Assembly (NCBI GenBank): GCA_963836955.1
Contig: CAWILO010000011.1
Location: 776,715 to 840,714, forward strand
Reading direction: 5' to 3'
Length of the DNA stretch: 64,000 nt
Source: an uncultured delta proteobacterium
GTDB taxonomy: Bacteria; Desulfobacterota; Binatia; Binatales; Binataceae
The position numbers and the translations under genes are program-made. The notes under the pieces are model-generated. The model did not search any database, was not told the origin of the DNA, and saw nothing but the letters and a program-made list of their open reading frames with translations. Below, one piece after another: positions 22,454-45,719 of this stretch; within the stretch, counting starts at the first letter, position 1; each line of letters starts with the position of its first letter.

Positions 22454-22481
22454 ATAGGTGAGGTCGACTAGGTGAGGTCGA
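22454..22481. repeat. perfect 14-bp tandem duplication taggtgaggtcgac x2 immediately upstream of the chimeric gene
   Basis: Seen directly in ctataggtgaggtcgactaggtgaggtcgaccgtc. Confidence 0.55.
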
Positions 22482-26270: not shown

Positions 26271-26323
26271 GGCATCAGACCCGGTTGCTCTGAGAGTAAT
26301 TTCGAGACTTGAATCATCCGCAC

Positions 26324-28201
26324 TCAGATCGGCCGGACCACTCCGATCGGCATGGCACCAGGCGCTGCACCCACGCCCGAAGGTTCACGTGGCACGAGTT
26401 CCTGCGTCTCGTTCAGCTCCATCGAGAATCTCCGCACCGGTATTCCGTGCGTCCGCCCAAAGCGGCGAAGTCTTTCCATCTGCTCGGCACCGAGCTCTTC
26501 GTCGGCCACGATGATCTCGGTGAACGGCACCCGCGTGTGGATGGACTCGATGTCCTCGGGTGTGCCGAGCACTTCCTCTCCGTCCAAGATTTTGCCGTGC
26601 TTGAATGCGTCCCTGTCGACGAATCCAACAACGCGGGCCGAGCGCGCGCGCGCCTTCAAGATGAATTCCGCAGCCACGGTTCCGATTTCTCCGGCTCCCA
26701 CCACTAACACCCTGTTCGTGACGGTCGCGAGGCGGTTGATCAGCTTGCGCAGCACCTGGAACGACATCCGCGTCGCGACCAAAAGGTTGACCAGCAGGAG
26801 CGCATACAGCACCGCAATTGATCCGGAATGCCTGATGGGCAGGAAATCGGAGCCAATCGCCACCAAGATTCCCGCGATTATCGCGCCGCCGGCGAAACGG
26901 AAGCTGTCCGTGAGACCCGCGTAGCGCCAGATTCCACGATAGACGCCCGCGAGCAGAAAGGCGGGGTACGTCAGCAGGATCACCCACGGCAGCCCGCGGA
27001 CCATCGATGCGAGCACCTCGGGCGTGAACTTGAAGTCAAGCCGCAACGCGCACGCGCCGAAGTATGCCGCGCTGATCAGCGCGGTGTCCATCGCCGCCTC
27101 TGCAATTCGACGTTTGTAGCCGAGAGAAAGAATGTACCGTGCTAGCCCCTGAAGGTAGCCGTACGCCACGCTCGGGGGGCTTGAGTCGAAGGTCAAATCG
27201 ATGAGGAAAAGCGCAATCACCGCTGCCGCGAGGGCGATGAACGGCAGCGCCGCAACGACGTCCGCATGTGGCAACAGGTTCGCCGCAATCGCGCATCCGG
27301 CGGCGACCGCGGCCACCGCCCAAATCGACGCGACAACCCGCCACTCCGTCAATCCGAGCGAGAGCAGCCGATCGTGGACGTGCTCCAATCCGTGCCGCGA
27401 AATCGCCTTTCCGGTGGCCAGCCGAGCCGCCGTCACGATCCCCGCGTCGAGCAATGGCACCAGCATTACCAGCAGCGGAAAGATCCACAGAGTGAGCCGC
27501 GAGTTCGCCGCGAGTGCTCCTCCTTGAATAGCCAGCACACCGAGCATGTATCCGATCGGGAGCGCACCGGCGTCGCCCATGATGATCGATGCGGGAGGGA
27601 GATTGAAGATAAGAAACCCCCCCAGCGCTCCCGCGACAGCGAGGCTCGGCGCGGTCACCGCGGGCATTCCAAGCACGATGCCGATCGTCGCAATCGCAGC
27701 GGTGACCATAATTCCTATCCCTGCCGCGAGACCGTCGAGTCCGTCCACGAGGTTGAACGCGTTGGTCGTTGCGATTAGCCAGAAGATGGTGATCCCGACG
27801 TCCAGCAATTGCCAGGGAGTGAACGCGTAATGTGGCAGCGCGAAGATCGCGGCCAACGTGATGATCGCAAGCTGGCACAAAAACTTCTGTCCGGGGCTCA
27901 GCACCAGCGCATCATCTACCAGACCGACCATCAGCATCGCCCCGGCGCCGATCGCCATCCACCAGTCCAGGTGGCCGGTTACCGCGAGGGCGACGATGAT
28001 CGAGGCGACAATCGATATGCCGCCCGTAGCAGGAACTCGCGCATCGCTGAGCGGCGAGGCTACCCTCGCGGTGATGCGCATCCACCGGCCAATGCGCGTT
28101 GTCACAGGCATCGTAACAATCGCTGTCAAGAACGCGATTGCAGCCGTCGTCCACGGATTTGTTAGAAGGTCGTACATGGTTGAGCTCATCAAGGCCTGCA
28201 T
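26324..28201 (-). CDS. initiating polyprenyl-phosphate HexNAc-1-phosphate transferase (WecA/MraY family, GT4-type) fused to a C-terminal Rossmann-like domain
   Basis: Multi-TM N-terminal part with NAFNLVDGLDGLAAG and IIMGDAGALPIGYMLG (WecA/MraY signatures). The C-terminal 160 aa (VLVVGAGEIGTVAAEFIL...VVGFVDRD) are nucleotide-binding-like. Confidence 0.6.
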   Translation of the reverse strand: MQALMSSTMYDLLTNPWTTAAIAFLTAIVTMPVTTRIGRWMRITARVASPLSDARVPATGGISIVASIIVALAVTGHLDWWMAIGAGAMLMVGLVDDALVLSPGQKFLCQLAIITLAAIFALPHYAFTPWQLLDVGITIFWLIATTNAFNLVDGLDGLAAGIGIMVTAAIATIGIVLGMPAVTAPSLAVAGALGGFLIFNLPPASIIMGDAGALPIGYMLGVLAIQGGALAANSRLTLWIFPLLVMLVPLLDAGIVTAARLATGKAISRHGLEHVHDRLLSLGLTEWRVVASIWAVAAVAAGCAIAANLLPHADVVAALPFIALAAAVIALFLIDLTFDSSPPSVAYGYLQGLARYILSLGYKRRIAEAAMDTALISAAYFGACALRLDFKFTPEVLASMVRGLPWVILLTYPAFLLAGVYRGIWRYAGLTDSFRFAGGAIIAGILVAIGSDFLPIRHSGSIAVLYALLLVNLLVATRMSFQVLRKLINRLATVTNRVLVVGAGEIGTVAAEFILKARARSARVVGFVDRDAFKHGKILDGEEVLGTPEDIESIHTRVPFTEIIVADEELGAEQMERLRRFGRTHGIPVRRFSMELNETQELVPREPSGVGAAPGAMPIGVVRPI

Positions 28202-28416
28202 GATGCTTGGGCGCTGAAGCTATTTGCGCTATTGCGCCCGATAAGGGGCCGCGGTTAGGACCGTCTGCAGTGTGGCGTACGGTCGTTCGCATACGAAGGC
28301 GCCGGAATGCTCCGCGGCGGGGCCGGTTCGCCAGGGTGAGCCGCGAATCTCACCAGGAAAAACCCGACTGCAATCTTAATTTCGCTTTGAAACAAACAGG
28401 CCCCCAAGCGTCGCGA

Positions 28417-29472
28417 TCAGGCATTAGAGGACATGCATTCATTCCGGAATTTTTCATTCACCTGCCGCTCAATCCAGGCGTAGGTACGCGCGAGTCCCTC
28501 CTCCAAGGAAATCTCAGGCTCCCAGTTCAGGACCGCGCGCAGTCTGGTGTTGTCGGAATTGCGTCCGCGCACACCCTGCGGACCAGGCACATGCTTGCGG
28601 CTGATCCGAATGCCCGCGATGTCCGCTACAATTTCGGCAAGTTCGTTTATCGTAACCATCCGGTCCTGCCCAAGGTTGAGCGGCTCGTGGTAGTCCGAAC
28701 GCATCACCTTGCAGATCCCGGTGACGCAGTCGTCCATATAACAGAACGAGCGGGTCTGCTCGCCGTCTCCCCAGATCTCGACTTCGTGATTTCCGGTCAG
28801 CTTTGCGTGCGCCACTTTGCGGCTCAATGCAGCCGGTGCCTTCTCGCGTCCGCCCTCCCAAGTGCCGAAGGGGCCGAAGATATTATGGAAGCGGACTATC
28901 CGCGTCTCGATTCCGTAGTCTTCGCGATAGTGGGTGCACAATCGCTCGGTGATGAGCTTCTCCCATCCATAGGCGTCCTGCGGCTGTGCGGGGTAAGCGT
29001 CTTCCTCCTTAAGAGGAGCTGCGTCGGTCTTGGTCTGCTTGTATTCGGGATAGACGCAGGCCGACGAGCTGTACAAATAGCGGCGTACCCCGTTGCGATG
29101 CGCAGCCTCCAGAGTCTGAAAGTTGATCGTCGCGTTGTTGTAGAGGATCTGCGAGTGATGAGAGGAGATGAAACCCATCCCGCCCATGTCCGCGGCGAGC
29201 GCATAGACCTCCTCGATGTCACGTGTCGCCGTAACGCAATTCTCCCAGATGCGAAGGTCCAGGAGATGAAATTCGTCGCAGTCCGACGGACGGAATTCCG
29301 GCTCTTTGATGTCGACGCCGCGGACCCAGTATCCGTCGCGTTTGAGACGGCTGGCCAGATGACTCCCGATGAATCCACCAGCTCCAGTAACGAGAATTTT
29401 TGTCGTCATTGTGTCAACAGGTTTGACTTTTATTTCACGCTGAGCGAGCTGAGATTCCATCAAGCTGACCAT
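28417..29472 (-). CDS. GDP-mannose 3,5-epimerase homologue (NAD-dependent SDR epimerase). The true start is probably the internal MTTKILV near 29409
   Basis: Long collinear similarity to plant GME as recalled from memory: ILVTGAGGFIGSH...CDEFHLLDLR...LAADMGGMGFI...YSSSACVYPE...PQDAYGWEKL...FHNIFGPFGTWEGGREKAPAA...WGDGEQTRSF...HVPGPQGVRGRNSDNT. Confidence 0.7.
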   Translation of the reverse strand: MVSLMESQLAQREIKVKPVDTMTTKILVTGAGGFIGSHLASRLKRDGYWVRGVDIKEPEFRPSDCDEFHLLDLRIWENCVTATRDIEEVYALAADMGGMGFISSHHSQILYNNATINFQTLEAAHRNGVRRYLYSSSACVYPEYKQTKTDAAPLKEEDAYPAQPQDAYGWEKLITERLCTHYREDYGIETRIVRFHNIFGPFGTWEGGREKAPAALSRKVAHAKLTGNHEVEIWGDGEQTRSFCYMDDCVTGICKVMRSDYHEPLNLGQDRMVTINELAEIVADIAGIRISRKHVPGPQGVRGRNSDNTRLRAVLNWEPEISLEEGLARTYAWIERQVNEKFRNECMSSNA

Positions 29473-29493
29473 AGCCCGCTGGTCATGGTTCGC

Positions 29494-30354
29494 TCAACGT
29501 TCCGGGCGTTGTGCGGCGACAGCCTGTCTCAAGCGGATCTTCAGCGTCTCGGCGAGCGCACGATAGAGAAACCGAGGGCCGTCGACCAGGTCACGGCGCC
29601 ACAGCTTCGCCGGTTCCAGCGCAAGCCGCCATAGCCACTCGAGACCAGCGTCGGCAACCCATGCGGGTGCCCGTCTCACCTGTCCGCTGACAAGACGGAA
29701 CGCCGCTCCCACCCCGACAACCACGGGCACCCGGAGCGCGTCCAGATTGCTGTGAATCCACCACTCCTGTTTGGGGAGGCCGAGACCGACCCAGAGCACG
29801 TCCGGCCGCGCTTCGTTTATCTGCTTCACCATCGCCAGCTCTTCTTCGCGTTCCAACTTTCGAAAAGGCGGAGACAGGGTTCCAACCACGCGGTGACCGG
29901 GATGCCGCCGCTCGAATCGTTCCTTCAGCGCAGCGAGCGTTTCCTCGGTGTCGCCATAGAAAAAGCTCCGGTGACCCGTCCGATTGGCGCGCGCGGCGAA
30001 GCCCGCCAGCAATTCGGGGCCGGGAACCCGGCCCGGTAGCGGCAAGCCGTGCAGCCGCGATATCCAGACCGGGGCAATTCCATCGGGGCAGAAGAGATCC
30101 GCCGAGTTGAGCACGTCGCGCAGCCGCGGGTTCCTGTGCGCCTCCCAGATTCCGTGAAAGCCAGTGGCGACGACGAAGCGGCACCGCTCCTCGCGCAGCT
30201 CGATAAAGCGCTCGATGCGATTCAGTGCCTCATCGATCGTCACCCTGGAAATCGAGCACCCTAGGATTTCAATCGACGGGGGTCGCACCTGGCGCTCGGC
30301 TTGGGACATTTCGCCACTAACTATGGAAGTCATGAGGCGTCGGTTCCTCGACAC
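29494..30354 (-). CDS. WecB/TagA/CpsF-family glycosyltransferase (GT26)
   Basis: VGLGLPKQEWW and GLEWLWRL are GT26 signature motifs as I recall them. Confidence 0.65.
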   Translation of the reverse strand: MSRNRRLMTSIVSGEMSQAERQVRPPSIEILGCSISRVTIDEALNRIERFIELREERCRFVVATGFHGIWEAHRNPRLRDVLNSADLFCPDGIAPVWISRLHGLPLPGRVPGPELLAGFAARANRTGHRSFFYGDTEETLAALKERFERRHPGHRVVGTLSPPFRKLEREEELAMVKQINEARPDVLWVGLGLPKQEWWIHSNLDALRVPVVVGVGAAFRLVSGQVRRAPAWVADAGLEWLWRLALEPAKLWRRDLVDGPRFLYRALAETLKIRLRQAVAAQRPER

Positions 30355-30434
30355 AATGGGGCAGTCTGTAGTGTGAGCACGACAACAGAACCTTGCTCGG
30401 CGCGCTCAGCGCGCAAAGTTTCGCACCCGAATCA

Positions 30435-31811
30435 TCAGCGGTAGGCCCGCGCATCGAATGCAACAGTTGCGGCGCCTTGGGTCGTTGGCCAAGTCTCCGC
30501 GCTCTGGCGGGCATTTCGAAGATTCGCGGCGCGAATCAATGCTCCGAGGTAAACCATCGCCGGCAGCTGCAGCATCAGGTCGACGCTGAACAACGCGGCG
30601 GTATTCTCGGGAAACGTCCGGAGGGTGAAAAAGACCATCAGGCCGGCGACCTGCACGAACATTATTGAATCATCCGCAGGCACGATATCCGGCCTCCATG
30701 CCGCGCGCGCGAGATATACAAGGGCGATGGCGAAACCCAGCGTCCAGGCGCCTCCGCCGAGAAACCCTCCGCATAGCAACGCATACAGGACGCCGTTCTG
30801 CGCATTCCGAAAGATAATCCGGCGGTCCCCTTGCGGCCCGTAGCCGATGATCGGCGCGCGCAGGATGGCGAGCCAAGCATTGTTGAAAATGCCCATGCGC
30901 CCGTGCATCCGCATCAGATTGCGGTCATTGCGCGTTGCGAATCCCCAAAGGTAGTGCAATGTATCGTGCGATATGAAATTGAGACCGATGGCGCCGACGG
31001 TCAGTGCCAGCGTCAGAATACCGATCGTGCGTGCGCGACCTCCCAGTAACAGCATCACGACTCCCAGTGCCGCCACGAATGCCGCGAGCGATCCACGCGA
31101 CTGCATCACCCAAACTAACCACGCGCATCCAGCGAAGAGCGCAATCCACCCTACCCGGGTCCATCGCTCTGCCCGCCACATTGCAGCGCATGCAACGATT
31201 GCCACCGCAGCCGCAAAGCGTGAAATCCCGGTCGAACGCACCATCGCCATGCCCGCAACCGTCGGCACCTTCACATTTATGCCATAGCCGCTGAGTCCCT
31301 GCTTCGTCTCCTCTGCGAGATGGCCTCGGCCGACGTAAGCGACGATCGCAAGAATCACGGCGGCCGTGACCCAGCTCAGCCGGTTGAGCGATGCCGCGCC
31401 GGCAATTTCGCCGCCGCATTCTGCCAGGTACATTTCACCAGCGCCCAGCGTCGCGATGAATGCGAGCCCCCAATAGCCCCACGCAAACCAGTTCTCCACC
31501 CCAATACTCGCGATGAGACAGATGCCCCCGTAAAGAAACCACAGCCACTCGGGCGGGGTCGGCTCGCGCATACGGGTATTGCTGCGGCCAAGCAGATGAA
31601 GAATCCAAATCGGCAGGACCACGAGCGGAAGCGTTGCGCGGATGCCATTGAACGCGACTGTCCATCCGCTCAGCATCCGGTCGAGATCAATATCCCAAGG
31701 ACCCGTGTCAATCGATCCCCAGAGCGCAACCCAACACAGTGTAGGAACGACCGGAAGCATGATTCCGGTTACAGTACGCGGGGACCGAGATGCTGACGCC
31801 GATCGCGTCAT
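30435..31811 (-). CDS. O-antigen ligase/polymerase-family membrane protein (Wzy-like)
   Basis: About 10-12 predicted TM segments and an O-antigen-ligase-like loop region. There is no sequence-level proof of function. Confidence 0.5.
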   Translation of the reverse strand: MTRSASASRSPRTVTGIMLPVVPTLCWVALWGSIDTGPWDIDLDRMLSGWTVAFNGIRATLPLVVLPIWILHLLGRSNTRMREPTPPEWLWFLYGGICLIASIGVENWFAWGYWGLAFIATLGAGEMYLAECGGEIAGAASLNRLSWVTAAVILAIVAYVGRGHLAEETKQGLSGYGINVKVPTVAGMAMVRSTGISRFAAAVAIVACAAMWRAERWTRVGWIALFAGCAWLVWVMQSRGSLAAFVAALGVVMLLLGGRARTIGILTLALTVGAIGLNFISHDTLHYLWGFATRNDRNLMRMHGRMGIFNNAWLAILRAPIIGYGPQGDRRIIFRNAQNGVLYALLCGGFLGGGAWTLGFAIALVYLARAAWRPDIVPADDSIMFVQVAGLMVFFTLRTFPENTAALFSVDLMLQLPAMVYLGALIRAANLRNARQSAETWPTTQGAATVAFDARAYR

Positions 31812-33133
31812 AGCTGGTCGACCGCAGTCTCAGTTGTGGCATGCGTCGAGCCGCCACGGGAGACGTCGCCGGCTTCGACTCGAGCGCGATGATGGTTCAT
31901 GGCGTCGTGATAGACTCGCTCGACCGCCTCGGCCTTAGCCTCCAGCGAATAAGCGCGAGCACGGCGCAATGCTCCCCCTGCAAGCTGCTGGCGCCGCTCT
32001 TCGTCGGATGCAAGCTGGGCAACAGCGCCCGCAAGTCGTTGCTCGAATTCGCGTGCGGAGCGGATGGGCAGCTTGATGCCGCACTCGTCAGTGACGGCGT
32101 CCGAAAATCCGCAATGGTCGGGGCAGATAACAGGAACCCCTTGTGCAAGAGCTTCGATGATCACGGTCGAGGTCAGATCCTTGAGACTGGTGATTACGAA
32201 CACGTGGGCACGGCGCAGTCCGTTTAGTGCCTCGTAACGCGGAACCTGTCCATGCCAGGTGCATCGCGCATCGATGCCAAGCCGCGATGCTAGGCTCTGC
32301 CACTGTCCCCGGCACGGTCCGTCGCCGTAGATATCCAGATGCCAATTCGCGGGGTTCGCGTGCAAAGCGCGCAGGAGCAACTGAAGAGCCTTGCCCGGGA
32401 GATGAAGTCCGCTCCATGCGATTCGGAGCGGTTCGGCGGGAGCGCGAAGCGCTAATTCCTTCGCGGCCTCAATTGGAGCGCCCACCTCGGAAATGACCTC
32501 GCTGGGCACTCCATACCAGCGGAGAATTTCGGCCTGTATGCCGGAAGTGGCCGCGATCACGGCGCTCGCGCGCCTGAATGCTTTGCGCGGCGCGCGTAAA
32601 AATCTCTTGTGCCAGGAGTTGACGATGTTTCTTGCCGCATAATAGGCGGCACCTTGAACGCCCATGGCCGGAACCAGGCGCCAAGGCGTGTTTTCGAGTC
32701 CACCGATAGGCCCCCATACGAACGGAAGGTCGAGTTTCCACAGATAGCCCGGAAAACGGAACCCCACGTATGTAATCTGATGGAAGAGGTCGAAGCCTAT
32801 TTTGCGATGAAGGCGAGAGCCCAGAAGGAATGCGCCGCGCAGCCATGACCGATAGGCCCAGTTCATCGCGGGCTTGACGATGGAGTTCTCGACCCGGATC
32901 CAAGCGGGGGTCGGCCGATAATGCCATGACTTCTCCTCGACGTAGACGAAGTGGAGATTGTCGTAGCAGTCCGGGCGGTTTCGCAACTCTGCTTCGATGT
33001 CACGTCGGTGGTGCTCAGCGGTAAGCACCCACACCTCGTAATTCCGTGCGATCGCGTTCACCCAGCCCCATCCCACGCCGTCCTCCGACCCGCGCAAGGG
33101 ACTACACGCGTAAGCACAAGCCAGCACTTTCAC
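31808..33133 (-). CDS. glycosyltransferase family 4 (GT-B, Glycos_transf_1)
   Basis: N-terminus MKVLACAYACSP...GVGW. The C-terminal half is a retaining GT4-like core (FVITSLKDLTSTVIIEALAQGVPVI). Confidence 0.6.
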   Translation of the reverse strand: MKVLACAYACSPLRGSEDGVGWGWVNAIARNYEVWVLTAEHHRRDIEAELRNRPDCYDNLHFVYVEEKSWHYRPTPAWIRVENSIVKPAMNWAYRSWLRGAFLLGSRLHRKIGFDLFHQITYVGFRFPGYLWKLDLPFVWGPIGGLENTPWRLVPAMGVQGAAYYAARNIVNSWHKRFLRAPRKAFRRASAVIAATSGIQAEILRWYGVPSEVISEVGAPIEAAKELALRAPAEPLRIAWSGLHLPGKALQLLLRALHANPANWHLDIYGDGPCRGQWQSLASRLGIDARCTWHGQVPRYEALNGLRRAHVFVITSLKDLTSTVIIEALAQGVPVICPDHCGFSDAVTDECGIKLPIRSAREFEQRLAGAVAQLASDEERRQQLAGGALRRARAYSLEAKAEAVERVYHDAMNHHRARVEAGDVSRGGSTHATTETAVDQL

Positions 33134-33137
33134 CGGT

Positions 33138-34079
33138 TCAACTCTCTCGCTTCGCCGTTCGCGGGATGGGACGTGCCCCGAGCAACCGCCGAACTTCGGC
33201 AGTCATCCCCGCACAATTGCCCGACATGCGAGACAGCGCGCCGCGCTCGAGACGAGCGGCGGCGTGGCACATCGTGATGCCCATCCGAAGCATCAGGCCG
33301 AGCCAGCACTTTCGATATGAGAGACCGTGCTTGGTGACGACGTAGAGGCGGTTTCGGACCTCGGTCTTTCCGAAAGCATAGTTGCGCGCGTGCCGATTAA
33401 CCGACGGGTGATGCGCGTAGCGGGCATTGGCGACAACGGCGAGCCGCCAGCGGCGCCGAATGGTGAAGCTGAAGTCGAGATCCTCCAGGTAACTGTAACC
33501 CGTGAAAAATTCGTCGAACCGACATGTCTTCAAGACATCGGCACGCCACGCAACTGCGCCGCTCGGCAGCCAATCGACGTAGGTGTTTTTCGACACGAAG
33601 CCGGTCATTGTCTGCCAACCGGAAGGCGTCACCCTTCCCGGTTCGCCGCTGTAAACGCCAAGCGCCCTTATGAGGCGCCAGCGCTTGAGCCGCGAGAACG
33701 CCTGGATGGGATGGTTGACCATGTTGAAGGCGGCACCGCCGACGTCGGCGGGAGCGGCGTCCCAGAAGGCGAGCATCTTATCCACGGCATTGGGTTCGAG
33801 AGTTGCATCGTCGTCAAGGAAGGCGATCAGATCGATATCGGCCGGGACAGCTTCGATTCCCGCGTTGCGCTGCCCCGAGGCGGAGGGCGGCTGGTGATGA
33901 AGGTATTGTAAAAGTAGCCGATGGTGGAACTGGTCAACGACTGGCTGTACCCGGATAACGCTGGAATCGACCACAACAACCAGATCCGGCAGATGCGATT
34001 GCGCTGCGAGGCTTTCCAGCATGCGGCACAAGTCGGCTGGGCGGTCCTTTGTCGCGACGACAAAACAGAGCTTTTTCAC
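33138..34079 (-). CDS. glycosyltransferase family 2
   Basis: MKKLCFVVATKDRPADLCRMLESL...FLDDDATLEP has the GT-A fold and a DxD motif. Confidence 0.6.
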   Translation of the reverse strand: MKKLCFVVATKDRPADLCRMLESLAAQSHLPDLVVVVDSSVIRVQPVVDQFHHRLLLQYLHHQPPSASGQRNAGIEAVPADIDLIAFLDDDATLEPNAVDKMLAFWDAAPADVGGAAFNMVNHPIQAFSRLKRWRLIRALGVYSGEPGRVTPSGWQTMTGFVSKNTYVDWLPSGAVAWRADVLKTCRFDEFFTGYSYLEDLDFSFTIRRRWRLAVVANARYAHHPSVNRHARNYAFGKTEVRNRLYVVTKHGLSYRKCWLGLMLRMGITMCHAAARLERGALSRMSGNCAGMTAEVRRLLGARPIPRTAKRES

Positions 34080-35320: not shown

Positions 35321-35349
35321 TTGAGTCGGTGGCTGAAGAAGCTATTGAT

Positions 35350-36647: not shown

Positions 36648-38120
36648 TCATTCGGCCGCCCCTGCTGCGGGGACACTAGCGCTGTGCAAATAACCTCGGA
36701 CGACCGCCTTCTCGTTGCTGTCGAGCAAAACCGTCCAGCTGAGCAGCGCGAATGAGCCTACCGCCCCGGCCAGGAAGAGACCTTTAGCAGCGAGGTCCAT
36801 AGGGAGCGCCCCGAGGCCAAGGACAACAAGCGCGAGCGCGGCCATTTTTGCCAGTCTGTTTATAGCGGGGGCTGCTAGCGGCAGAAGGCCGTGTGCGATG
36901 ATCAACAGGAAGACTATTTCCACGGTCACTCGGGCCGTCCAAGCGATTGCGGCTCCAACGATCCCGTAACGCGGAAGCATCCACCAGAGCAACGCGAGGT
37001 AGAACGGAACCTCGGCAACATGAAGCTTCGCAGTAAGATCAGGACGATGCGCGGCCTGAACGAGGCCGTAGGGCGCGGAGGCGAGGCAATTGACGAACGT
37101 CCCGACCGCGAGCCATCGGAGCACGCCCGCGCTATGAGCCGCGAACGGGTGACCAAGCCATACGGCTAGGCCTTCAGGCGCAAGTGCGACAAGGAGTAGC
37201 ACCGGCACAAACAGGGCGAGCAGCGTATAGCGCGTGGCGCGTTCAAAAATTAACGTTGCGCGCGCCGGATTCCGGGCGAATGAACCTGAGAAGGCGGCAA
37301 AGATGACCCCTTCCATCGCTCCAGAGACTACGCCGAGTTTGCCTGCGACCTGGAAGGGTACGGCGTAATACGCAATCGCTGCCATCGAGAGCATCGCGCC
37401 GATCAGGAAACGGTCAAAATAGGCCATAATTGGGCCAATCACTGTCGATACGGTGATCCAGCTGCCGAAACTCACCATTGGGCGGACCGCGGCGCTACGA
37501 GGGTGAATTTCGCGCCGGAGCGCTGGAACGGCCCGGAAACACAGCCACAACGTCGCAAACCATCCGGCGAGACGGACCGCCACTACCATTGCGACGAGCC
37601 AGCCGAGGCTGTGTGAGAACGGCAACACGAGGAGCGGGCCGACATAGGAGAAGATGCCGCTGGGCACGCGGACCGCGTTTATGAGGTCGAATCGCTGTAA
37701 GGCGGAGAGTGTGCCACCCAAGCTGCCGCCACTGATGACAAAAGGCATCGAGAGCGCGAGGAGGTAGAACGCGTGCAAGCTTTCGGGCCGCAGCCTGGAG
37801 GGAATTTTGAGGACGTCGTACACCAGCCAGGGAGCAAGTGCTGCCACCAGGACACTGCCCGCGGCACCGAACGCCAGCATCAGGAACAGCGAGGTCCAGA
37901 ACAGGTCGGGAATCTTTTCCTGTTCGCTCGACGCCACGGCCTCGGCGATGAACTTAGTCGCGGCACGGCCAAGACCTAAGTCGAACAGTCCGAAGTAGCC
38001 GACCACCATCATGGACAGAGTGAGGACACCATAACGATCCACCCCAAGTGCGCGAATAACGATCGGCAACGCGACGAGCGCAACCAGAAAGGGCGCGACC
38101 TCGCCCGCGAGGTTGATCAT
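36648..38120 (-). CDS. Wzx-type oligosaccharide flippase (MOP superfamily polysaccharide biosynthesis protein)
   Basis: 490 aa with about 12-14 TM segments. The N-terminal IRALGVDRYGVLTLSMMVVGYFGLFDLGLGRA resembles Wzx/RfbX. Confidence 0.6.
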   Translation of the reverse strand: MINLAGEVAPFLVALVALPIVIRALGVDRYGVLTLSMMVVGYFGLFDLGLGRAATKFIAEAVASSEQEKIPDLFWTSLFLMLAFGAAGSVLVAALAPWLVYDVLKIPSRLRPESLHAFYLLALSMPFVISGGSLGGTLSALQRFDLINAVRVPSGIFSYVGPLLVLPFSHSLGWLVAMVVAVRLAGWFATLWLCFRAVPALRREIHPRSAAVRPMVSFGSWITVSTVIGPIMAYFDRFLIGAMLSMAAIAYYAVPFQVAGKLGVVSGAMEGVIFAAFSGSFARNPARATLIFERATRYTLLALFVPVLLLVALAPEGLAVWLGHPFAAHSAGVLRWLAVGTFVNCLASAPYGLVQAAHRPDLTAKLHVAEVPFYLALLWWMLPRYGIVGAAIAWTARVTVEIVFLLIIAHGLLPLAAPAINRLAKMAALALVVLGLGALPMDLAAKGLFLAGAVGSFALLSWTVLLDSNEKAVVRGYLHSASVPAAGAAE

Positions 38121-38378
38121 CGTGTTGCGGGCCAGCAGCCGCCCGCCTGTCAGATTTGAGGCGTCGTTCAGGGATCAATCCACATCGCTCGCGAATTGTC
38201 CACACGCCCGGAGACGTCGAGAAGGACAAAGCTTAAGCCGTTTCGGAGGAACAATTCCACGAGGTCAAGCGCGAGCTCAGATGCTGACTGGGCTGACAAA
38301 CGGGGCGTTCTTCTCTGAGGGAAGGAAACAATCTGCAGTGAAACACCGCGCTCGCCAAAATTGCGCAACGGCTACGAC

Positions 38379-41243
38379 CTATCGTGGCAATTTGTTGGCG
38401 CTGCCCGCCCCGCGCGCCGGCGCAACATTCTCCGCGGCATCCGAACGCCCGGCAGCCACTTTCTTCTGGAAGGCTGCGTAGCTCTCGCGCACCTCGACGT
38501 CGTTCGGAGCAAGCGCGCGCGCGCGGAGATAGTCGCGGTCGGCGGCGACGTATTGGTAGGCGCCGTCCTCCGCGCCTGCCAGCCCAACCCACGCGCGGGG
38601 GTTCGTCGGATCGACTTCCGTGGCGCGCCGAAAGGTCTGAGCTGCTCGCTCATAGTCGCGGTCGCCCAAGTAGAAAGAACCCAAGCGGAGGAGGTTGTCG
38701 TAGGTCGGCTCGTACTCGACCATCTTCACCAAGGCCGCGCGCGCCTTGTCGGGTTGGTCCGAGGTCTGCGCAACCTGCGCGAACGCTGCAAACAGAGGAA
38801 CCGGGTCGACGCCGGCATCCAGCCCTTCCTTTAGGGCGATCTCGGCGTCAGGGACGTTCTTCTGTGCGACAAACACCTCGGTCAACAGAGCGGTGTATGG
38901 CTCCGGATCTTCCGGGCGTAGGGCGCGGGCCCCCTCAAAGCAGCGGCGCGCCCGGTCAAGTTGGTCCGCGCTCGCATAGGTCTGCCCCGCTATCACCAGA
39001 AGTTGCACACGACTACGGGGATCCTGCTCGGAGGCCGCACCACGCTCGTAGACCTGCGCGGCATCCAGACTGCGCTCGGTATCGGTGTAGAATGTGCCGA
39101 GGCTCCTGATAGCATCGGGGTATCCGCGCGCCACCGCTTCGACCAGACCCTGTTCGATCGCATGGCGATCGGGTTCTGCCAGGTAAGGCACTATCCGAGG
39201 GCTGAGGTAGATGTGGTTATTAGAGCTGGGCGCCCACATCACTGAGATCGTAATCTGATTTAGCGCCTCGGCGATGCGCCCATCGTCGGCCAGGCCGTGA
39301 GCGTAGAGGTCGCGCGCGAACGGATTGCGCGGATCGATCCATACCGCCCGCGCAGCCTCCGCGAGCCCTGCCGGCGAGTTCCCGTACCACGACGCCAGAG
39401 CGAGGTGCAGACCGGCGTTGGCCGGATGCAGCAACACCATTGTGCGCGCAGCATCAAATGTTTTGGGCGGCGCATAGTAGGGGTAAATCACGCTTCCTTG
39501 GACGGTGGAGGCAATCGCCAGAATCCCCGCCGCCGCAGCTGCGTACGGACCGGCACCTCGAACAAACCCACGGGCGCGGCTCGAGGACTCAGTTTCTTGC
39601 GCGCCGGCGACCGCGATCCTCACCATCAAGGCCGCGTAGATCGCGAACAGAAACCCGATAGCCGGGGTGGTGAGGCTGAAATCAAACAGCTCGTGGAATG
39701 CTTCGACCGACACTCCGGCCACTAAAGCGGCTATCGTCAGTTGCGCGCTCGGGGACACGCGGTCCCATCGCTTCCATATGACCCGCGCGGTTCGCCATCC
39801 GATCATTGCGAATGCCGCAACGCCCAGGATTCCAAGTTCCGCCGCAATTTCTACATAGTCGTTGTGGGCGTTACGAAAAACCTGGTCAGGCCAAGGACCT
39901 GTCCGATAGTGAGGGAACACTTCGGGCCACGATCCGAAGCCGACCCCCAACAACGCATAGTCCCGGAACATTCGAAGCGTGTCGTGCCAGATATGAACGC
40001 GGTACCAAAAGCCGAGCCCGCCGGCGACGCTCTGGCCGATCCGCGTGTCGACCTCCCCCCTACCCGCGGAACCTATCAGAGCGATCGACATCGCTGCGAC
40101 TGCAAGCGCCGCAAGTCCCAGCCACGGCATCCAGGCGCGCGCACCATCGGCGCGCGCGCGGAACACGGTGGGTGTTCTTATTCGACTTGCCAGAACAGCA
40201 AACAGTACGCAGGACACCACCGTGCCAGCCCAGATTGCACGCGATTCACTCAGAAGTATCGCGCACATCACAACGACCAGCGCCGCGCTGCACAGTATCG
40301 GCACCGTCTCATCGCGGTCCCGCCCGCCGTTGCCTGCTAACGCGCCCCAGGCCCGCGAGATGAACAGCGGAACGGTCATCGCGAGATAGACAGCAAAGTG
40401 GTCGGGATCGATGAAAGGGCCCATCATGCGCGGCCGGTTCAGGTTTGGCGCGCCCCAATCGAGCGGGACAAAGAACCACAGCACCTTACCGTTCCAGGTG
40501 ACCTGCTGCGCCAGTCCGATAGTCGCCACGGCAAATCCACTGATCAGGATCACCGCTACGAGCAAACGGGTAAGCGGGTCCTCGTCGCGCTGGGTCGCCG
40601 CGGACGCGACCGGATAGAGCGCCACAATCAAAAAAAGCCCGAACGCTGCTAGGAGTTGCAGCGCGCTTGCAATCCCGAGCGGGGGCGCCAGCGACAACGA
40701 CCGCCAAGCAGTTCCATACCAGCCCGGGTCCGCCGGGGAGCGACCTACCACGGGCGGCGAAGCCGTGTCACGGCTCCCGCGCTTCGAGGTGAATGGAACC
40801 GGCGCGCCGTTCTTCGCCTCGATTTCCGTCGGCAGTGCCACTAGCTGGGTCTTGTAGGTCGCCGACTGTGCCGGCTCTGCTTTCGGCCGGTGATAGTCAA
40901 GCGCTTTCGGCCACCCATCCAGCGCGTGCTGATAAAGGTCGTATGCTCGCGGCGACAGGACGTGCAAAACCGACGGCGGCATGGGTAGCAGCTGGAAACC
41001 GATAAGCAGCGCCAGTACGGCAGCGGGTGCCGCGATGCTCAGCACCGACGCCGCTCCCTTGATCGCCGGTTGCGGCGCTCGCATCCGCAGGAGCGTCGCG
41101 GCCAGCATAGCGAAGACCACGGTCTCAGCCGTGTGATACGCCCATGGATGAACCGTCCCGAAGCATGGGGGGGTAACAAGGATCAGAAGGACCAGCCCCC
41201 CGACCACTGCACGGTCGGTCAAATCAATCAGCTGGGTGCGCAC
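38379..41243 (-). CDS. O-antigen ligase/Wzy-like polytopic membrane domain fused to C-terminal TPR repeats
   Basis: 954 aa. A multi-TM N-terminal ~550 aa is followed by a soluble repeat region with TPR-like periodicity (AQVYERGAAS..., AGQTYASADQLDRARRCFEGARALRPEDPEPY...). Confidence 0.55.
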   Translation of the reverse strand: MRTQLIDLTDRAVVGGLVLLILVTPPCFGTVHPWAYHTAETVVFAMLAATLLRMRAPQPAIKGAASVLSIAAPAAVLALLIGFQLLPMPPSVLHVLSPRAYDLYQHALDGWPKALDYHRPKAEPAQSATYKTQLVALPTEIEAKNGAPVPFTSKRGSRDTASPPVVGRSPADPGWYGTAWRSLSLAPPLGIASALQLLAAFGLFLIVALYPVASAATQRDEDPLTRLLVAVILISGFAVATIGLAQQVTWNGKVLWFFVPLDWGAPNLNRPRMMGPFIDPDHFAVYLAMTVPLFISRAWGALAGNGGRDRDETVPILCSAALVVVMCAILLSESRAIWAGTVVSCVLFAVLASRIRTPTVFRARADGARAWMPWLGLAALAVAAMSIALIGSAGRGEVDTRIGQSVAGGLGFWYRVHIWHDTLRMFRDYALLGVGFGSWPEVFPHYRTGPWPDQVFRNAHNDYVEIAAELGILGVAAFAMIGWRTARVIWKRWDRVSPSAQLTIAALVAGVSVEAFHELFDFSLTTPAIGFLFAIYAALMVRIAVAGAQETESSSRARGFVRGAGPYAAAAAGILAIASTVQGSVIYPYYAPPKTFDAARTMVLLHPANAGLHLALASWYGNSPAGLAEAARAVWIDPRNPFARDLYAHGLADDGRIAEALNQITISVMWAPSSNNHIYLSPRIVPYLAEPDRHAIEQGLVEAVARGYPDAIRSLGTFYTDTERSLDAAQVYERGAASEQDPRSRVQLLVIAGQTYASADQLDRARRCFEGARALRPEDPEPYTALLTEVFVAQKNVPDAEIALKEGLDAGVDPVPLFAAFAQVAQTSDQPDKARAALVKMVEYEPTYDNLLRLGSFYLGDRDYERAAQTFRRATEVDPTNPRAWVGLAGAEDGAYQYVAADRDYLRARALAPNDVEVRESYAAFQKKVAAGRSDAAENVAPARGAGSANKLPR

Positions 41244-41305
41244 GCAGTCGCAAACCTACCGGCATCGCTAGAGGATCGTGGTCGACGAAGAAACGACGAG
41301 CACGC

Positions 41306-43714
41306 CTAGGTTCCGTCGCTCACGCGCTTGGGACTGTCGGCCGCTGGAGAACTGTCCTCGAACGATGTTTCCGCGGCCTCTACGTTTTCGAAGTTATCGA
41401 AACCCTGGTAGTAGGCTTGGTAGGCCTTCGAGTAATAGTGCGGGTAATCCGCCTTGTGCAGCCGCACCTTGTTGAGTACGACGCCTAGAATCTTGGCATG
41501 CGCGTACTCCAGACGGCCCAACGCCGCGGCGACCTGATGGCGGGGTGTGTGTCCCCCGGCCACAACCAGCACCACCCCGTCAACCGCATGAGCAAGATCG
41601 AGCGGGTCGCTCACCAACATCACCGGCGAAGAATCGATGATGATGTAATCATACGTTTCAGAAAGTTCCCCCAGGAAATCCTTCATCCGCGCTGAACCGA
41701 GCAGCTCACTTGGGTTCGGAGGAATCTTCCCGCAACTCAGAAAAAAGAGATTTTCCACCGGGGTCGGATTCACCAGCTCCTTTCCGCCCGCCCCGGTGAG
41801 CGCCTCACTGAGACCCGCCCCGTTTTTCAAACCAAGTAAACGATGGCATCGCGGGCGCCGCATGTCAGCGTCGATTATCAAGACTCGTGAGCCGATCTTC
41901 GCGAACACCGAGGCGGTGTTGACGGTAACCGTGGTCTTTCCTTCGCCGGGAACGGCACTGGTGAACATGGTCACCTTCGGCGGCGCCCCCGCCCGCGACA
42001 AGCGCAGCGAGGTGCGAAGATGCCGAAAGGACTCGCCCAGTATTGAGTATTTGCCGTAGGTCGCGACTAGGTCACGTCCATGCGCGTCATTGGCGGGCAG
42101 CTCGGCTACCGCAGGCTTTGTCAGGTATCCCGCGCCGTAGCGCGCGCCGAGCGAGATGGCGTTGGTGAAGTCAGGTATCATCGCCAGACCGGGAAGCTTC
42201 AGATATTCTTCCATTTCCTCGGCGGTCTTAAGGGTGTTGTCGAGCCGTTCGATGAGTAGCGCCGCACAAATCCCCAGCAGTAATCCTAGCGCGCCCGCGG
42301 CTACCAGGTCGCGCTTGGTGCGCGGGCTAGATGGGGCGAGCGGCGGTTGCGCCGCGTCTACGATCGAAGTGTTGGACGCGTGTGCGTCGACGGTCAGGTT
42401 CTTCATCCGCTTGAGCACGGCGTTGTAAAGCTCGCGGTTAGTGTCGGCCTCGCGTGCAAGCATCACGTATTTGATCGCGGCGTCGTTGAGCCCCAGCGCA
42501 AAGCTCTTCTCCTTGTCGAGCTCGGCGGCGATCGCTTGTTCGCTCTCGAGCGCGGCCTGATATTGCTCGTTTACGCTCGCGACCGCGGTCTTGAGCTCGC
42601 TATCCATAACCCCGCGCGTCCCGTCGATCTTTTCGCGGAGCTCTCGCATTTCGGGATAGTCATCGGTGTACTCGCCGCGCATACTGGCGTAGCGCGATTC
42701 GAGCTGGTCAAGGTCACTTTTCAAGCCCTGGATAACCTTATTGTCCATCACCTGGGGCAAGGCATCGGTGCGGCCAGCCTTCACGAGCTGGAGCTGGGTG
42801 CCCAAGGTGATGGTCTTGAGGTGCGCATCCTGAAGGTCACGGTTGAGTTTGTTGAGCTGTTCGACCACCACGTCCTGGTTGCCGTTGAGTGAGATCAGCC
42901 CCGGGACGATACCCTTGTCGCGCCGGTAGTTGTTGAGCGCCACTTCCGATTGTTCGACGCGCTGCTTGAGTTCGTCGAGCTTGCCGGCCAAGAATCGCTG
43001 AGCCTCGTCGCTCGCCTGAGCGCTAAGCTCGATTCCCTGCTCAATAAATGCCCGCGCATGAGCATTAGCCATTCGCGCCGACAACTTGGGATCCGAGGTG
43101 GTGAACTCGACCTGCACCAATTGTGTGTTTTCGATGGGCTTGACCCGCAGCGCGTCCAAATACCATTGGACCACCGAACGGGGAACGCTCTCGGACAGTG
43201 GATCGTCCAATGTCGGAGCGGCGTGCTTCTCCGCAAGGCTGGGAAACCAACCGGCAAGCGCGGACCGCAAGACGCCCCACCCCGGCAACCACGACCCGGA
43301 AGCGGGTGACGACCCGGCCCCTAGCTTCATTAGCCCTTGGTCGAGAATCACCCGGGTTGCGAGGCTGCTTGACTTGAGCAGCTCGTGCTGCGTGTCATCA
43401 TACGGTTCCCGAGACGAGTCCTGCGTCGAGGAAAGGTTTTCGTCCTCGATTACCCGCGACGGGGCGTATCGTATGAGCAACGTGGTGCTGGCCGTGTAGC
43501 TAGGCTCTGTCATCAAATCGTGCATCAGCGTGAGACCCACACATACCGCCGCGATCACAAGCGCCACGCGTAGGTGCTTGTGCACGATGCGACGGTATTC
43601 GTGAAACTCAACCCAAGCCATGTGACCTGGATTGCGCGGCGGGCGGCGCATCAAGCGCGCTTGCACGACCTGCGTAGGCTCGTCACCCGGTTCCGACATT
43701 GTAGATTCTGGCAT
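41306..43714 (-). CDS. polysaccharide co-polymerase (Wzz/GumC-like) fused to a BY-kinase tyrosine autokinase with a C-terminal Tyr cluster (Wzc-like)
   Basis: N-terminal TM + Wzz region and a long coiled coil, then Walker A VPGEGKTTVTVNTAS and Walker B LIIDADMRRP. The C-terminal tail is DYPHYYSKAYQAYYQGF. Confidence 0.7.
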   Translation of the reverse strand: MPESTMSEPGDEPTQVVQARLMRRPPRNPGHMAWVEFHEYRRIVHKHLRVALVIAAVCVGLTLMHDLMTEPSYTASTTLLIRYAPSRVIEDENLSSTQDSSREPYDDTQHELLKSSSLATRVILDQGLMKLGAGSSPASGSWLPGWGVLRSALAGWFPSLAEKHAAPTLDDPLSESVPRSVVQWYLDALRVKPIENTQLVQVEFTTSDPKLSARMANAHARAFIEQGIELSAQASDEAQRFLAGKLDELKQRVEQSEVALNNYRRDKGIVPGLISLNGNQDVVVEQLNKLNRDLQDAHLKTITLGTQLQLVKAGRTDALPQVMDNKVIQGLKSDLDQLESRYASMRGEYTDDYPEMRELREKIDGTRGVMDSELKTAVASVNEQYQAALESEQAIAAELDKEKSFALGLNDAAIKYVMLAREADTNRELYNAVLKRMKNLTVDAHASNTSIVDAAQPPLAPSSPRTKRDLVAAGALGLLLGICAALLIERLDNTLKTAEEMEEYLKLPGLAMIPDFTNAISLGARYGAGYLTKPAVAELPANDAHGRDLVATYGKYSILGESFRHLRTSLRLSRAGAPPKVTMFTSAVPGEGKTTVTVNTASVFAKIGSRVLIIDADMRRPRCHRLLGLKNGAGLSEALTGAGGKELVNPTPVENLFFLSCGKIPPNPSELLGSARMKDFLGELSETYDYIIIDSSPVMLVSDPLDLAHAVDGVVLVVAGGHTPRHQVAAALGRLEYAHAKILGVVLNKVRLHKADYPHYYSKAYQAYYQGFDNFENVEAAETSFEDSSPAADSPKRVSDGT

Positions 43715-45132
43715 CAGAATGCACTCATCATCGCCGCGGCCGGGCCCATCGTAGCTAACCCCTGCGCCGCGAGGTACAGGGCGTATCCGGGAATTTTCAC
43801 CGCCGAATATCCAACGTCCACAACGTCGTTCGCCTGCAGGGCGACGTCGGGTGCCTCGCCCTGCTGAACCGCTGCCAGATTTACCTGGATTACTTTGGTC
43901 TGCTCACCCGGTTCGTGCCGCATGATCTTCACCGTGGTCGGATCCGCCGCGAACAACATACCTCCGGCCGCGGAAACAGCACTCAAGGCTGTCAAGCCGT
44001 GAGTCACTGGAAGCACCATAGGTTTATAGACCCAGCCAACGACCGAAGTTTGGCCTGCGGGAGGCACATACAGAGTATCGCCAGGCCGTACCTGGAGATT
44101 GACATATCTCCGGTAGGGCGAGTCGCCATCCAAAGCGATCACGTATGCGGAGCCGGCATCGAATTCGTTCTGGGAGGGTGGCCGAACCCACGGGGTATAG
44201 TCGCCTTTCACTGCGGTATTGGTGACGGCACCCGAAGATTGCGGCGTGGAATTGTTGACAGCGCCGAGCGCAGCGGTCGGGGCCTCGGGCGTTTTGGGCA
44301 TCGTCGCGCCGTTGGCGGCCTGCTGCGCGAGCATCGAGTCATCGTTTGAGCCTGCCCGCGCGGGGTTGAGCAGCACCTCACGCGCGGCGTTGTCGCTGAG
44401 CCCTCCGGCTCGTTCGATCAGATCACGAACGGTGTCACTGGGCCCGTTGAGTACATAAAGCCCCGGGGCGTGCACAGCGCCCATCACCCCCACCACCCTG
44501 CTCGAATAGCTCTTCACTAGCAGATTGATTTCCGGATGGTATACATACTTGTGGAGCGCGTTGGCCAGCTGGTTGATGATCTCCGGTTCCGTTAGTCCCG
44601 CAACGTGGAACGACCCCACCAGCGGAAGCGTAATGTCGCCCTTTCCGTCGACACGAACGTTACGGTCTTTGAGTTCCCTTACGTTCGGCACCGAAATTTC
44701 TAGCATGTCGCCGGGTCCGATCGTTAAGTCCTTTTGTTCGCTCGCGCGTTGCTGCCAGAGTTTGTCAAGCGCGGTATCCGATTGTTCGGGGGTAAGCTGA
44801 GCTGCTGAAGGTGAGACTTGGCTACCTGGCGCCGGTGGCGCCTGCGACGCGCACCCAGCGAGCGCCGCGGCCAGCACAGCAAGAAGCGTCACCCGAAAGC
44901 TAGGGACGCCGCCGGGGTTAGGTGCTCTTGCACTCCGAGTCAGACTTAGCGGACCCATTGTTGCTGACCGTGTTTTCTGAGCGCTGAACGTGGATCGAAC
45001 CTCTTTGTAAATCACACTGATCCTGCCCGACTCAATCAAGTCTTCTGAGCCCTGTTGCGAATGGGTTAGGATACTAACCTCAACCAAAGAAATTGTAGGG
45101 CTGCTTCGACACGAAATCCGAAACCGTGCCAT
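43714..45132 (-). CDS. Wza-like outer-membrane polysaccharide export (OPX) protein. The true start is probably the internal MGPLSL... with a lipobox LAGC
   Basis: Poly_export/SLBB-like region LTIGPGDMLEISVPNVRELKDRNVRVDGKGDITLPLVGSFHVAGLTEPEI. Confidence 0.6.
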   Translation of the reverse strand: MARFRISCRSSPTISLVEVSILTHSQQGSEDLIESGRISVIYKEVRSTFSAQKTRSATMGPLSLTRSARAPNPGGVPSFRVTLLAVLAAALAGCASQAPPAPGSQVSPSAAQLTPEQSDTALDKLWQQRASEQKDLTIGPGDMLEISVPNVRELKDRNVRVDGKGDITLPLVGSFHVAGLTEPEIINQLANALHKYVYHPEINLLVKSYSSRVVGVMGAVHAPGLYVLNGPSDTVRDLIERAGGLSDNAAREVLLNPARAGSNDDSMLAQQAANGATMPKTPEAPTAALGAVNNSTPQSSGAVTNTAVKGDYTPWVRPPSQNEFDAGSAYVIALDGDSPYRRYVNLQVRPGDTLYVPPAGQTSVVGWVYKPMVLPVTHGLTALSAVSAAGGMLFAADPTTVKIMRHEPGEQTKVIQVNLAAVQQGEAPDVALQANDVVDVGYSAVKIPGYALYLAAQGLATMGPAAAMMSAF

Positions 45133-45284
45133 TTGTCCATCGCTTATCGAGCGAAGCTCATGTCACGGCCGCCCCGCCGATCGATGGAACCACCCTGCCC
45201 AGAAACGAAGACTAACGACATTCGCGGAGCCTCGCTCACCGGAAAACTCCCCGCTACGATAAGATCCCTCAGTGCGACTCCCCA

Positions 45285-45719
45285 CTATGACCGTGCTGTA
45301 ACCGAACCCCATGTGGCACCGCCAACCGCCGCGCTCGGGGACGTGCAGGTTCCGTCTATCGCGCCCGGGCGACCGGTCGCGAGAGCGCTGGCGCTTTGCG
45401 AGACCATCCAATAAACGCAAAGACCTTCCGGCGGCACGCCGGTCTCGACCGTCTGGCCCTGGTACTTGGTCCCAGGCAAGTTCAGGGAGATGCTGTATTC
45501 CCCGGTCGCAATCCCCCCGATCGAGTAGCGTCCATTGGTGTCGGCATCCGCCTTGCCAACGACATTGCCCGTTTGGTCTTTAACGCTGACATGCGCGGAG
45601 GTCACTGGACGGTTCTGAGTGTCGGTGACCGATCCTGCGATTTCCGCCGACCGGGTCTGCACCGCGAGCATTAGCAACCCCAGCGCAAAAAGGCCCGTCA
45701 AAAGAGGCCTATTTATCAT
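45285..45719 (-). CDS. small secreted carboxypeptidase-regulatory-like (CarbopepD_reg) domain protein
   Basis: Signal peptide, then IAGSVTDTQNRPVTSAHVSVKDQTGNVVGKADADTNGRYSIGGIATGEY, a prealbumin-like fold motif. Confidence 0.4.
   Translation of the reverse strand: MINRPLLTGLFALGLLMLAVQTRSAEIAGSVTDTQNRPVTSAHVSVKDQTGNVVGKADADTNGRYSIGGIATGEYSISLNLPGTKYQGQTVETGVPPEGLCVYWMVSQSASALATGRPGAIDGTCTSPSAAVGGATWGSVTARS

Follow-up and report, generated by a model that had tools for sequence, protein, structure and literature searches.

Can a bacterial surface polysaccharide be built with L-galactose or L-gulose supplied by a relative of the plant GDP-mannose 3,5-epimerase (GME)? The question is raised by a locus at positions 26324-45719 of a 64,000-nucleotide stretch (the window throughout) of contig CAWILO010000011.1, assembled from an uncultured delta proteobacterium. 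A sequence-only reading of the window had described a complete Wzx/Wzy-dependent polysaccharide locus containing a GME homologue. We arrive at a similar answer: with a probability of roughly 0.7, this is a Wzx/Wzy-dependent capsule or exopolysaccharide (EPS) locus encoding a true GME, and the L-galactose or L-gulose (L-Gal/L-Gul) product of that enzyme enters the polymer.

The epimerase

The gene in question (28417-29409, minus strand; longest open reading frame, or ORF, to 29472) encodes a short-chain dehydrogenase/reductase (SDR) of 330 aa. Its closest solved structure is Arabidopsis GME (AtGME; PDB 2C59, E = 4e-123, 414 bits), with 56% identity over 313 residues, and the next family, GDP-fucose synthase, follows at E = 1e-31 and 113 bits. 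The SDR matches the Pfam Epimerase domain with 162.6 bits. Residues S137, C139, Y168, K172, K211 and R304 align with S143, C145, Y174, K178, K217 and R306 of AtGME, and S137, Y168 and K172 make up the catalytic triad [ST]...Yx3K. GDP-mannose 3,5-epimerases (also written GM35E) are set apart from GDP-fucose synthase by a Lys rather than a His as the base and by an Arg rather than a Lys as the residue that acidifies the Cys (PMC8787198). This C/K/R fingerprint was found in the window SDR, in AtGME and in all 20 prokaryotic GME-type sequences aligned, whereas two GDP-fucose synthase (Fcl) controls from related loci carry C/H/K. In a neighbor-joining tree the SDR, AtGME and the same number of prokaryotic GME-type sequences formed one clade in 98 of 100 bootstraps, to the exclusion of GDP-fucose synthases, a GDP-mannose dehydratase (GMD) and other SDRs. 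The claim of a GME homologue is thus borne out by similarity, fingerprint and phylogeny alike, the last being the analysis in which the sequence-only reading had allowed for a grouping with Fcl or other epimerases instead.

The start of the gene is most likely Met22 of the 351-aa ORF, because homologues are about 330 aa long and the exact 330-aa product was called on an independent assembly (Logan contig L161), flanked there by the same GT26 and 625-aa transferase. The window SDR shares with AtGME (also PDB 2C54, 2C5A and 2C5E) the extended-SDR fold family as well as the triad, the Cys/Lys/Arg set and the clade. It lacks the N- and C-terminal extensions of the plant enzyme, which is 377 aa long in UniProt. 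The glycine motif (GAGGFIG, residues 30-36 of the 351-aa ORF) has the canonical GxxGxxG form, in contrast to GxxGxxA in AtGME, and the gene lies in an operon, while AtGME feeds ascorbate and cell-wall synthesis without one. The first bacterial GM35E to be characterized, MfGM35E of Methylacidiphilum fumariolicum, uses GDP-mannose and is 50.5% identical to AtGME (Gevaert et al., 2019; PMC6678494), a value that the window SDR exceeds. Taken together, the comparisons support a true GDP-mannose 3,5-epimerase orthologue with the predicted activity EC 5.1.3.18.

The polysaccharide locus

Thirteen ORFs occupy 26324-45719, all on the minus strand and separated by short gaps or overlapping. The gene inventory and coordinates of the sequence-only reading proved correct, its reported ends being exact ORF ends, and Pfam and NCBIfam profile searches recovered the core machinery of a Wzx/Wzy pathway. 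The assignments that follow, like the GME clade and the catalytic fingerprint, were made from sequence.

Export is represented by two genes. A Wza-like outer-membrane polysaccharide export (OPX) protein is encoded at 43714-45132 (Poly_export 64.8 bits, SLBB_2 57.7 bits, SLBB 45.2 bits); its true start may lie downstream of the first ATG of the ORF, because the sole hydrophobic segment is at residues 74-96. The gene at 41306-43714 encodes a Wzc-like polysaccharide co-polymerase (PCP-2a; GNVR 39 bits) fused to a P-loop bacterial tyrosine (BY) autokinase, which passed the TIGR01007 cutoff (171.6 bits against 108) and carries Walker A (GEGKT), A' (VLIIDAD) and B (YIIIDSSP) motifs and a C-terminal cluster of six Tyr, KADYPHYYSKAYQAYYQGF. 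A Wzx-type MOP flippase with about 12-13 hydrophobic segments is encoded at 36648-38120 (Polysacc_synt 53.5 bits, cutoff 28.2; Polysacc_synt_3 44.6 bits). As to the polymerase, the sequence-only reading had counted two Wzy/ligase-like proteins. This holds for the 954-aa product of 38379-41243 (Wzy_C 73.1 bits at residues 320-478, about 13 hydrophobic segments, TPR families at residues 786-925), which could either polymerize or act in a ligase-like way. The second, a 458-aa polytopic protein with about nine hydrophobic segments (30435-31811), gave a sub-threshold match to Wzy_C (28.9 bits, E = 1.1e-6, gathering score 31.7) and no match in the NCBIfam search, and is a probable Wzy.

The glycosyltransferases comprise two of family GT2 (35350-36375, Glycos_transf_2 94.2 bits; 33138-34079, 50.2 bits), two of family GT4 (34076-35320, Glycos_transf_1 44.6 bits; 31808-33133, 65.2 bits) and one GT26 of the WecG/TagA/CpsF family (29494-30354, Glyco_tran_WecG 189 bits). 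At the upstream end, 153 bp ahead of the OPX gene, 45285-45719 encodes a small secreted protein with a CarboxypepD_reg domain (45.1 bits) and an N-terminal hydrophobic segment (residues 2-20); whether it belongs to the polysaccharide locus is uncertain.

The last gene (26324-28201) encodes a 625-aa initiating phosphotransferase of the MraY/WecA superfamily. A Glycos_transf_4 domain (PF00953, 104.2 bits, residues 82-227) is fused to a C-terminal module of transmembrane segments and CoA_binding_3 (26.2 bits, residues 418-556). This module is similar to the N-terminal half of a WbaP-type transferase, with residues 371-590 matching positions 2-219 of the TIGR03025 profile, and the Bac_transf domain is absent from the protein. 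The earlier description of a WecA-like initiator is therefore right as to the superfamily and too narrow as to the enzyme, given the score against the WecA equivalog TIGR02380 (69.8 bits, cutoff 326) and the additional CoA_binding_3 module. At the family level it is predicted to be a polyprenyl-phosphate N-acetylhexosamine (HexNAc)-1-phosphate transferase (PNPT), the sugar specificity being putative; JGI names its homologues GlcNAc-1-P transferase. Among the 120 clusters of homologues listed (703 proteins, E ≤ 1e-20), most share this architecture at about 615 aa, and clusters with an organism name are almost all from Binataceae. Homologues of the epimerase and of the initiator that carry an organism name belong mostly to "Candidatus Binataceae", and the host of the locus is most likely a diderm, soil-type bacterium of this family.

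The nearest genome locus, L001, comes from a metagenome-assembled genome also named "uncultured delta proteobacterium" and is syntenic with the window. Identities are 84% for PNPT, 88% for GME, 86% for GT26, 83% for the shorter Wzy-like protein and 80% for the GT4 of 31808-33133. The GT4 of 34076-35320 is 60% identical (tblastn), and no counterpart of the GT2 of 33138-34079 was detected in L001, where three other ORFs (319, 400 and 303 aa) occupy that position. This replacement lies between the two conserved GT4 genes, and the stretch (window 33138-35320, L001 1142-6225) is, on sequence comparison, a serotype-like variable region in a locus otherwise 80-88% conserved. By the same comparison the 3' module GT4-Wzy-GT26-GME-PNPT appears as a conserved core, with the remaining transferases varying as in serotype loci.

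The closest familiar arrangement is that of the E. coli group 1 capsule and colanic acid loci (Wza-Wzc, with WcaJ/WbaP or WecA). The window shares with them an initiating phosphotransferase, several glycosyltransferases, Wzx, a candidate Wzy, an OPX protein with Poly_export and SLBB domains, and a PCP-2a protein that carries a BY-kinase and a Tyr cluster. It differs in that the locus has no Wzb phosphatase gene, the initiator is a PNPT with the extra CoA_binding_3 module, and a second Wzy_C protein carries TPR. In colanic acid the L-fucose comes from GMD/Fcl, whereas the L-sugar here would come from GME. An XrtA/PEP-CTERM exopolysaccharide system was considered and rejected, as matches to PrsT, pepcterm_export, pepcterm_ChnLen and pepcterm_TyrKin were all below their cutoffs. 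The window flanks were scanned for ORFs not nested in a longer one (at least 180 aa in 1-26000, at least 150 aa in 45000-64000), and none of these ORFs encodes an exosortase. A promoter and terminator scan of 26000-45999 gave counts no higher than shuffled controls and did not refine the operon boundaries, and an Rfam scan of the window gave no match at gathering thresholds.

Genes of this type are widespread. The epimerase has more than 8000 matches among database proteins at E ≤ 1e-50, many of them already named "GDP-D-mannose 3',5'-epimerase" by JGI; in 2011, 43 bacterial GME homologues were counted in nr (PMC3220709). At least 598 stretches in a species-dereplicated genome collection encode a relative, spanning Chloroflexota, Acidobacteriota, Gemmatimonadota, Planctomycetota, Rhodothermales, Acidimicrobiia, Pseudomonadales and methanogenic archaea. 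Neighbors of GME were grouped by all-versus-all clustering in the loci of 80 species. They include GT4 (36 loci), PCP/BY-kinases (22), other SDRs (21), GT26 (14), OPX proteins (13), ABC-2 permeases (13) and Wzt ATPases (10), two GT2 clusters (12 each), Capsule_synth proteins (11), sugar-nucleotide dehydrogenases (10), Bac_transf initiators (10) and carbamoyltransferases (6). The window arrangement is one example of this widespread pattern, and as a single locus it is ordinary and already annotated by automatic pipelines. The rarity of L-galactose noted in the sequence-only reading holds for characterized glycans, but the spread of GME-type genes through bacterial polysaccharide loci makes the present case less unusual than it had implied.

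The physiological role of bacterial GME homologues has so far been a matter of conjecture, with lipopolysaccharide (LPS) or antibiotics proposed (PMC6678494). The MfGM35E gene adjoins a glycosyltransferase gene, with a methyltransferase and a PGP synthase nearby, and its authors hypothesized a role in cell-surface glycans, possibly LPS; BlmG (bleomycin) and MtdL (A201A) are bacterial homologues supplying L-gulose or L-galactose (PMC6678494). In contrast to the former, the window gene sits inside a full Wzx/Wzy and OPX/PCP locus, and in contrast to the latter two, which belong to secondary-metabolite clusters, it is part of a polysaccharide export locus. No paper in the collection searched links a polysaccharide gene cluster of bacteria to L-galactose or L-gulose made by GME. 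The window locus and the survey of 80 species place the GME gene in surface-polysaccharide assembly across many soil and sediment phyla. Because D/L configuration is skipped in routine composition analysis, L-galactose or L-gulose may occur in environmental EPS more often than is reported.

Three further associations were seen in the same survey. Eleven genomes, mostly of Chloroflexota (L003, L005, L009, L010, L013, L015, L018, L019 at 2423-3325, L020, L031 and L078), encode a protein family of about 300 aa downstream of GME, at 200 bp or less in nine; the family has no Pfam or PDB match, and its members could transfer or modify the L-sugar of this lineage as an enzyme not yet described. The carbamoyltransferase (Carbam_trans_N/C; L025:8165-9937 and five other loci) is within 200 bp of GME in five of the six and recalls the L-gulose and 3-O-carbamoyl-mannose disaccharide of bleomycin. 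The dehydrogenase genes, of the UDP-glucose/GDP-mannose dehydrogenase family, lie about 1 kb from GME (e.g., L002:8371-9744), and GDP-uronic acids might be made or epimerized in these lineages.

The GT26 transferase and its donor

If GME feeds the polymer, a transferase of the locus should use its product. The GT26 gene, which lies upstream of the longest epimerase ORF across a gap of 21 bp, is the nearest candidate. Among solved structures its closest match is the N-acetylmannosamine (ManNAc) transferase TagA (7mpk, E = 5.8e-37). It falls below the equivalog cutoffs for TarA (NF041710, 116.4 against 350), WecG (NF002980, 73.3 against 323) and EpsA (126 against 500), and passes the superfamily model TIGR00696 only (151.3, cutoff 69). 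With TagA/TarA, WecG and GumM of xanthan synthesis it shares the fold family and the PDG and PKQE motifs, both invariant across 14 GME-linked homologues. Its place beside an initiator suggests a second-step transferase acting on a lipid-PP-linked first sugar, as in those systems.

GT26 homologues accompany GME in 14 of the 80 species loci, across at least six phyla, and outside the sister genome they are 38-43% identical to the window protein. In 10 of the 14 the two genes are co-oriented and within about 110 bp of each other, in both gene orders, and in eight a Bac_transf initiator adjoins the pair, giving a recurrent initiator-GME-GT26 cassette. The survey was repeated from the GT26 side with the 80 closest metagenomic relatives (36-71% identity), 31 of which have a co-oriented GME-type gene (at least 45% identity) within 300 bp; among the 42 relatives with at least 1200 bp on both flanks, a GME-type gene lies within 300 bp in 14. 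With species and metagenome loci combined, GME-type genes lie no more than 2 kb from 47 GT26 relatives, which resolve into 32 distinct clusters at 70% identity; repeated sampling of a single lineage therefore does not account for the signal. A recent domain swap that would have given the window initiator its C-terminal module from the WbaP-type phosphoglycosyl transferase (PGT) of the PGT-GME-GT26 cassettes was considered and rejected: the match is only 26% over about 100 residues, and no Bac_transf remnant was found anywhere in the window.

The relatives without GME were informative as to the donor. In L135 (3932-6990) and L137 (3926-6988) they stand in a row GT26-GMD-Fcl (GMD E = 1e-135 to 1n7g; Fcl 461 bits), and in L084 (1729-3514) and L154 (12-3110) SDRs of the Cys/His epimerase-reductase type adjoin GT26; L154 also carries heptose-pathway genes. 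Both kinds of neighbor are routes to GDP-L-sugars. Twenty-one relatives with no SDR nearby have GT2, GT4, Bac_transf and methyltransferase neighbors. Neither UDP-GlcNAc 2-epimerase nor UDP-sugar dehydrogenase families recur beside the GME-less relatives, and the only sugar-nucleotide genes that do recur beside this subfamily are GME, GMD with Fcl, and related epimerase-type SDRs. L-fucose is 6-deoxy-L-galactose; therefore the neighbor pattern fits a GT26 subfamily using GDP-beta-L-hexoses. The window subfamily is genomically coupled to the synthesis of GDP-L-sugars and not to that of UDP-ManNAc(A), which sets it apart from TagA/TarA and WecG.

It is quite possible, on this pattern, that the window GT26 is the L-sugar transferase and adds the second residue to a lipid-PP-linked primer; an inverting GT26 would give an alpha-L linkage. 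A broader proposal is about as tentative: that the subfamily including 29494-30354 uses GDP-L-hexoses (L-Gal/L-Gul, and L-fucose in some lineages) in place of UDP-ManNAc(A), and that together with the initiator and GME it may form a mobile three-gene cassette. Such a cassette would place an L-sugar at the second position of surface polysaccharides in Binatia, Acidobacteriota, Gemmatimonadota, Chloroflexota, Rhodothermales and Acidimicrobiia. If true, GT26 enzymes would have a new class of donor, and the subfamily would be the first from bacteria to transfer L-galactosyl or L-gulosyl residues. A search of the paper collection for GT26 enzymes using GDP-sugars returned nothing relevant.

The chances approach even that the GT26 is instead a conventional TagA/WecG-type enzyme, transferring ManNAc(A) onto GlcNAc-PP-undecaprenol, with the L-sugar added later by a GT2 or GT4. 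In enterobacterial common antigen and in the teichoic acid linkage unit, a WecA-family initiator is classically followed by GT26, and the TagA structural match noted above agrees with this reading. GT26 is also not the only transferase to recur, since homologues (29-35%) of the GT4 of 31808-33133 are present in five other GME-GT26 loci. On the other side, a UDP-GlcNAc 2-epimerase or UDP-ManNAc dehydrogenase gene is absent from the window's scanned ORFs, neither family recurs beside this GT26 subfamily elsewhere, where the recurrent sugar-nucleotide neighbors are those listed above, and the equivalog cutoffs for TarA and WecG are far above the scores of the protein.

The kind of system described here is already known and is common in metagenomes, and the pairing of GT26 with GME (and with GMD/Fcl) is the most useful new lead. 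A transferase using GDP-L-Gal or GDP-L-Gul has been listed as lacking for glycoengineering (PMC8787198), and the conserved GME-GT26 pair offers a concrete candidate.

Proposed pathway and flanking genes

In the pathway that we propose, the PNPT (26324-28201) would put HexNAc-1-phosphate on undecaprenyl phosphate, giving HexNAc-PP-undecaprenol, while GME would convert cytosolic GDP-D-mannose to GDP-beta-L-galactose and/or GDP-beta-L-gulose. One or more of the transferases encoded here, putatively GT26 and otherwise a GT2 or GT4, would insert the L-hexose, and GT26, the two GT4 and the two GT2 would together build a repeat unit of roughly six sugars. Wzx would then flip the unit, a Wzy_C protein would polymerize it, and the PCP/BY-kinase and OPX proteins would export the polymer, which probably contains L-galactose or L-gulose. 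We infer that the GME product is used by this locus from the operon position of the gene and from its recurrence in such a context across many other species; the order in which the steps occur, the identities of the sugars and the part played by the second Wzy_C-TPR protein are putative. The genes for GDP-mannose would lie elsewhere in the genome, as the sequence-only reading had also stated: ManA (mannose-6-phosphate isomerase), ManB (phosphomannomutase) and ManC (GDP-mannose pyrophosphorylase) are not encoded among the scanned ORFs.

Several points weigh against this pathway. The precursor supply is assumed, since the window lacks those synthesis genes, and the organism is known from metagenome assemblies only. 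Characterized GT26 enzymes use UDP-ManNAc, UDP-ManNAcA or UDP-Glc, and the structure closest to the window GT26 is a ManNAc transferase. Of 78 GT26 relatives with readable context, 21 have no GME nearby. Gene adjacency cannot show donor specificity, and GT26 may simply be a second-step enzyme kept beside the initiator.

The product of the locus might also be something other than, or more than, free EPS. WaaL ligases and PglL-type O-oligosaccharyltransferases belong to the Wzy_C family, and two Wzy_C-family proteins are encoded here where a Wzy pathway needs one, so that the 954-aa Wzy_C-TPR protein could act like an O-antigen ligase or O-oligosaccharyltransferase and attach the repeat unit to lipid or protein. 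We consider this unlikely, as the full pair of PCP-2a/BY-kinase and OPX is typical of capsule and EPS export and nothing in the window points to an acceptor. More improbable again is that the GME-type enzyme acts on another GDP-sugar (e.g., GDP-mannuronic acid or GDP-heptose) or catalyzes one epimerization, leaving a polymer with some other unusual sugar: assays cover only three or four members of the family (PMC8787198) and the dehydrogenase neighbors in 10 of the 80 other loci would allow GDP-uronic acids there, but neither a dehydrogenase nor a heptose-pathway gene is present in the locus or the scanned window ORFs, all six catalytic and fingerprint residues are those of AtGME, and identity to AtGME is higher than that of the characterized bacterial enzyme, which uses GDP-mannose.

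The polysaccharide locus ends at 26324, because a separate, complete-looking lasso-peptide cluster (19102-26270, minus strand) lies directly downstream of the initiator. On the same strand it encodes a PqqD-type recognition protein (RRE; 25971-26270, 61.6 bits), a lasso cyclase (24031-25974; NF033535 388 bits, below the cutoff of 525), two HprK-related kinases (22684-23682 and 21487-22428), a transglutaminase-like protease (20962-21435, Transglut_core3), an NTP_transf_5 protein (19710-21002) and a 202-aa ABC membrane fragment (19102-19710). Neither a glycosyltransferase nor a precursor peptide was identified within 19102-26270. The asparagine-synthase-like gene at 24031-25974 was considered as an EPS amidotransferase and rejected, as it is the lasso cyclase and is accompanied by the PqqD, protease and kinase genes; a lasso cyclase with 63% identity also stands beside the initiator in L001.

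Other features of the window are more distant from the locus. A 1576-aa protein (872-5602) has C-terminal HEAT repeats as its sole recognizable feature, and a 589-aa protein (14601-16370) combines an Ice_binding-like domain (193 bits) with DUF7933. The stretch 48200-53900 is gene-poor, with a G+C fraction of 0.525-0.55 against about 0.60 elsewhere and no ORF above 205 aa; a tRNA-Arg(TCG) is encoded within it, at 50879-50957. Beyond the stretch come a second NTP_transf_5 gene (53974-55164) and a gene for a DDE_3 transposase (56527-57630).

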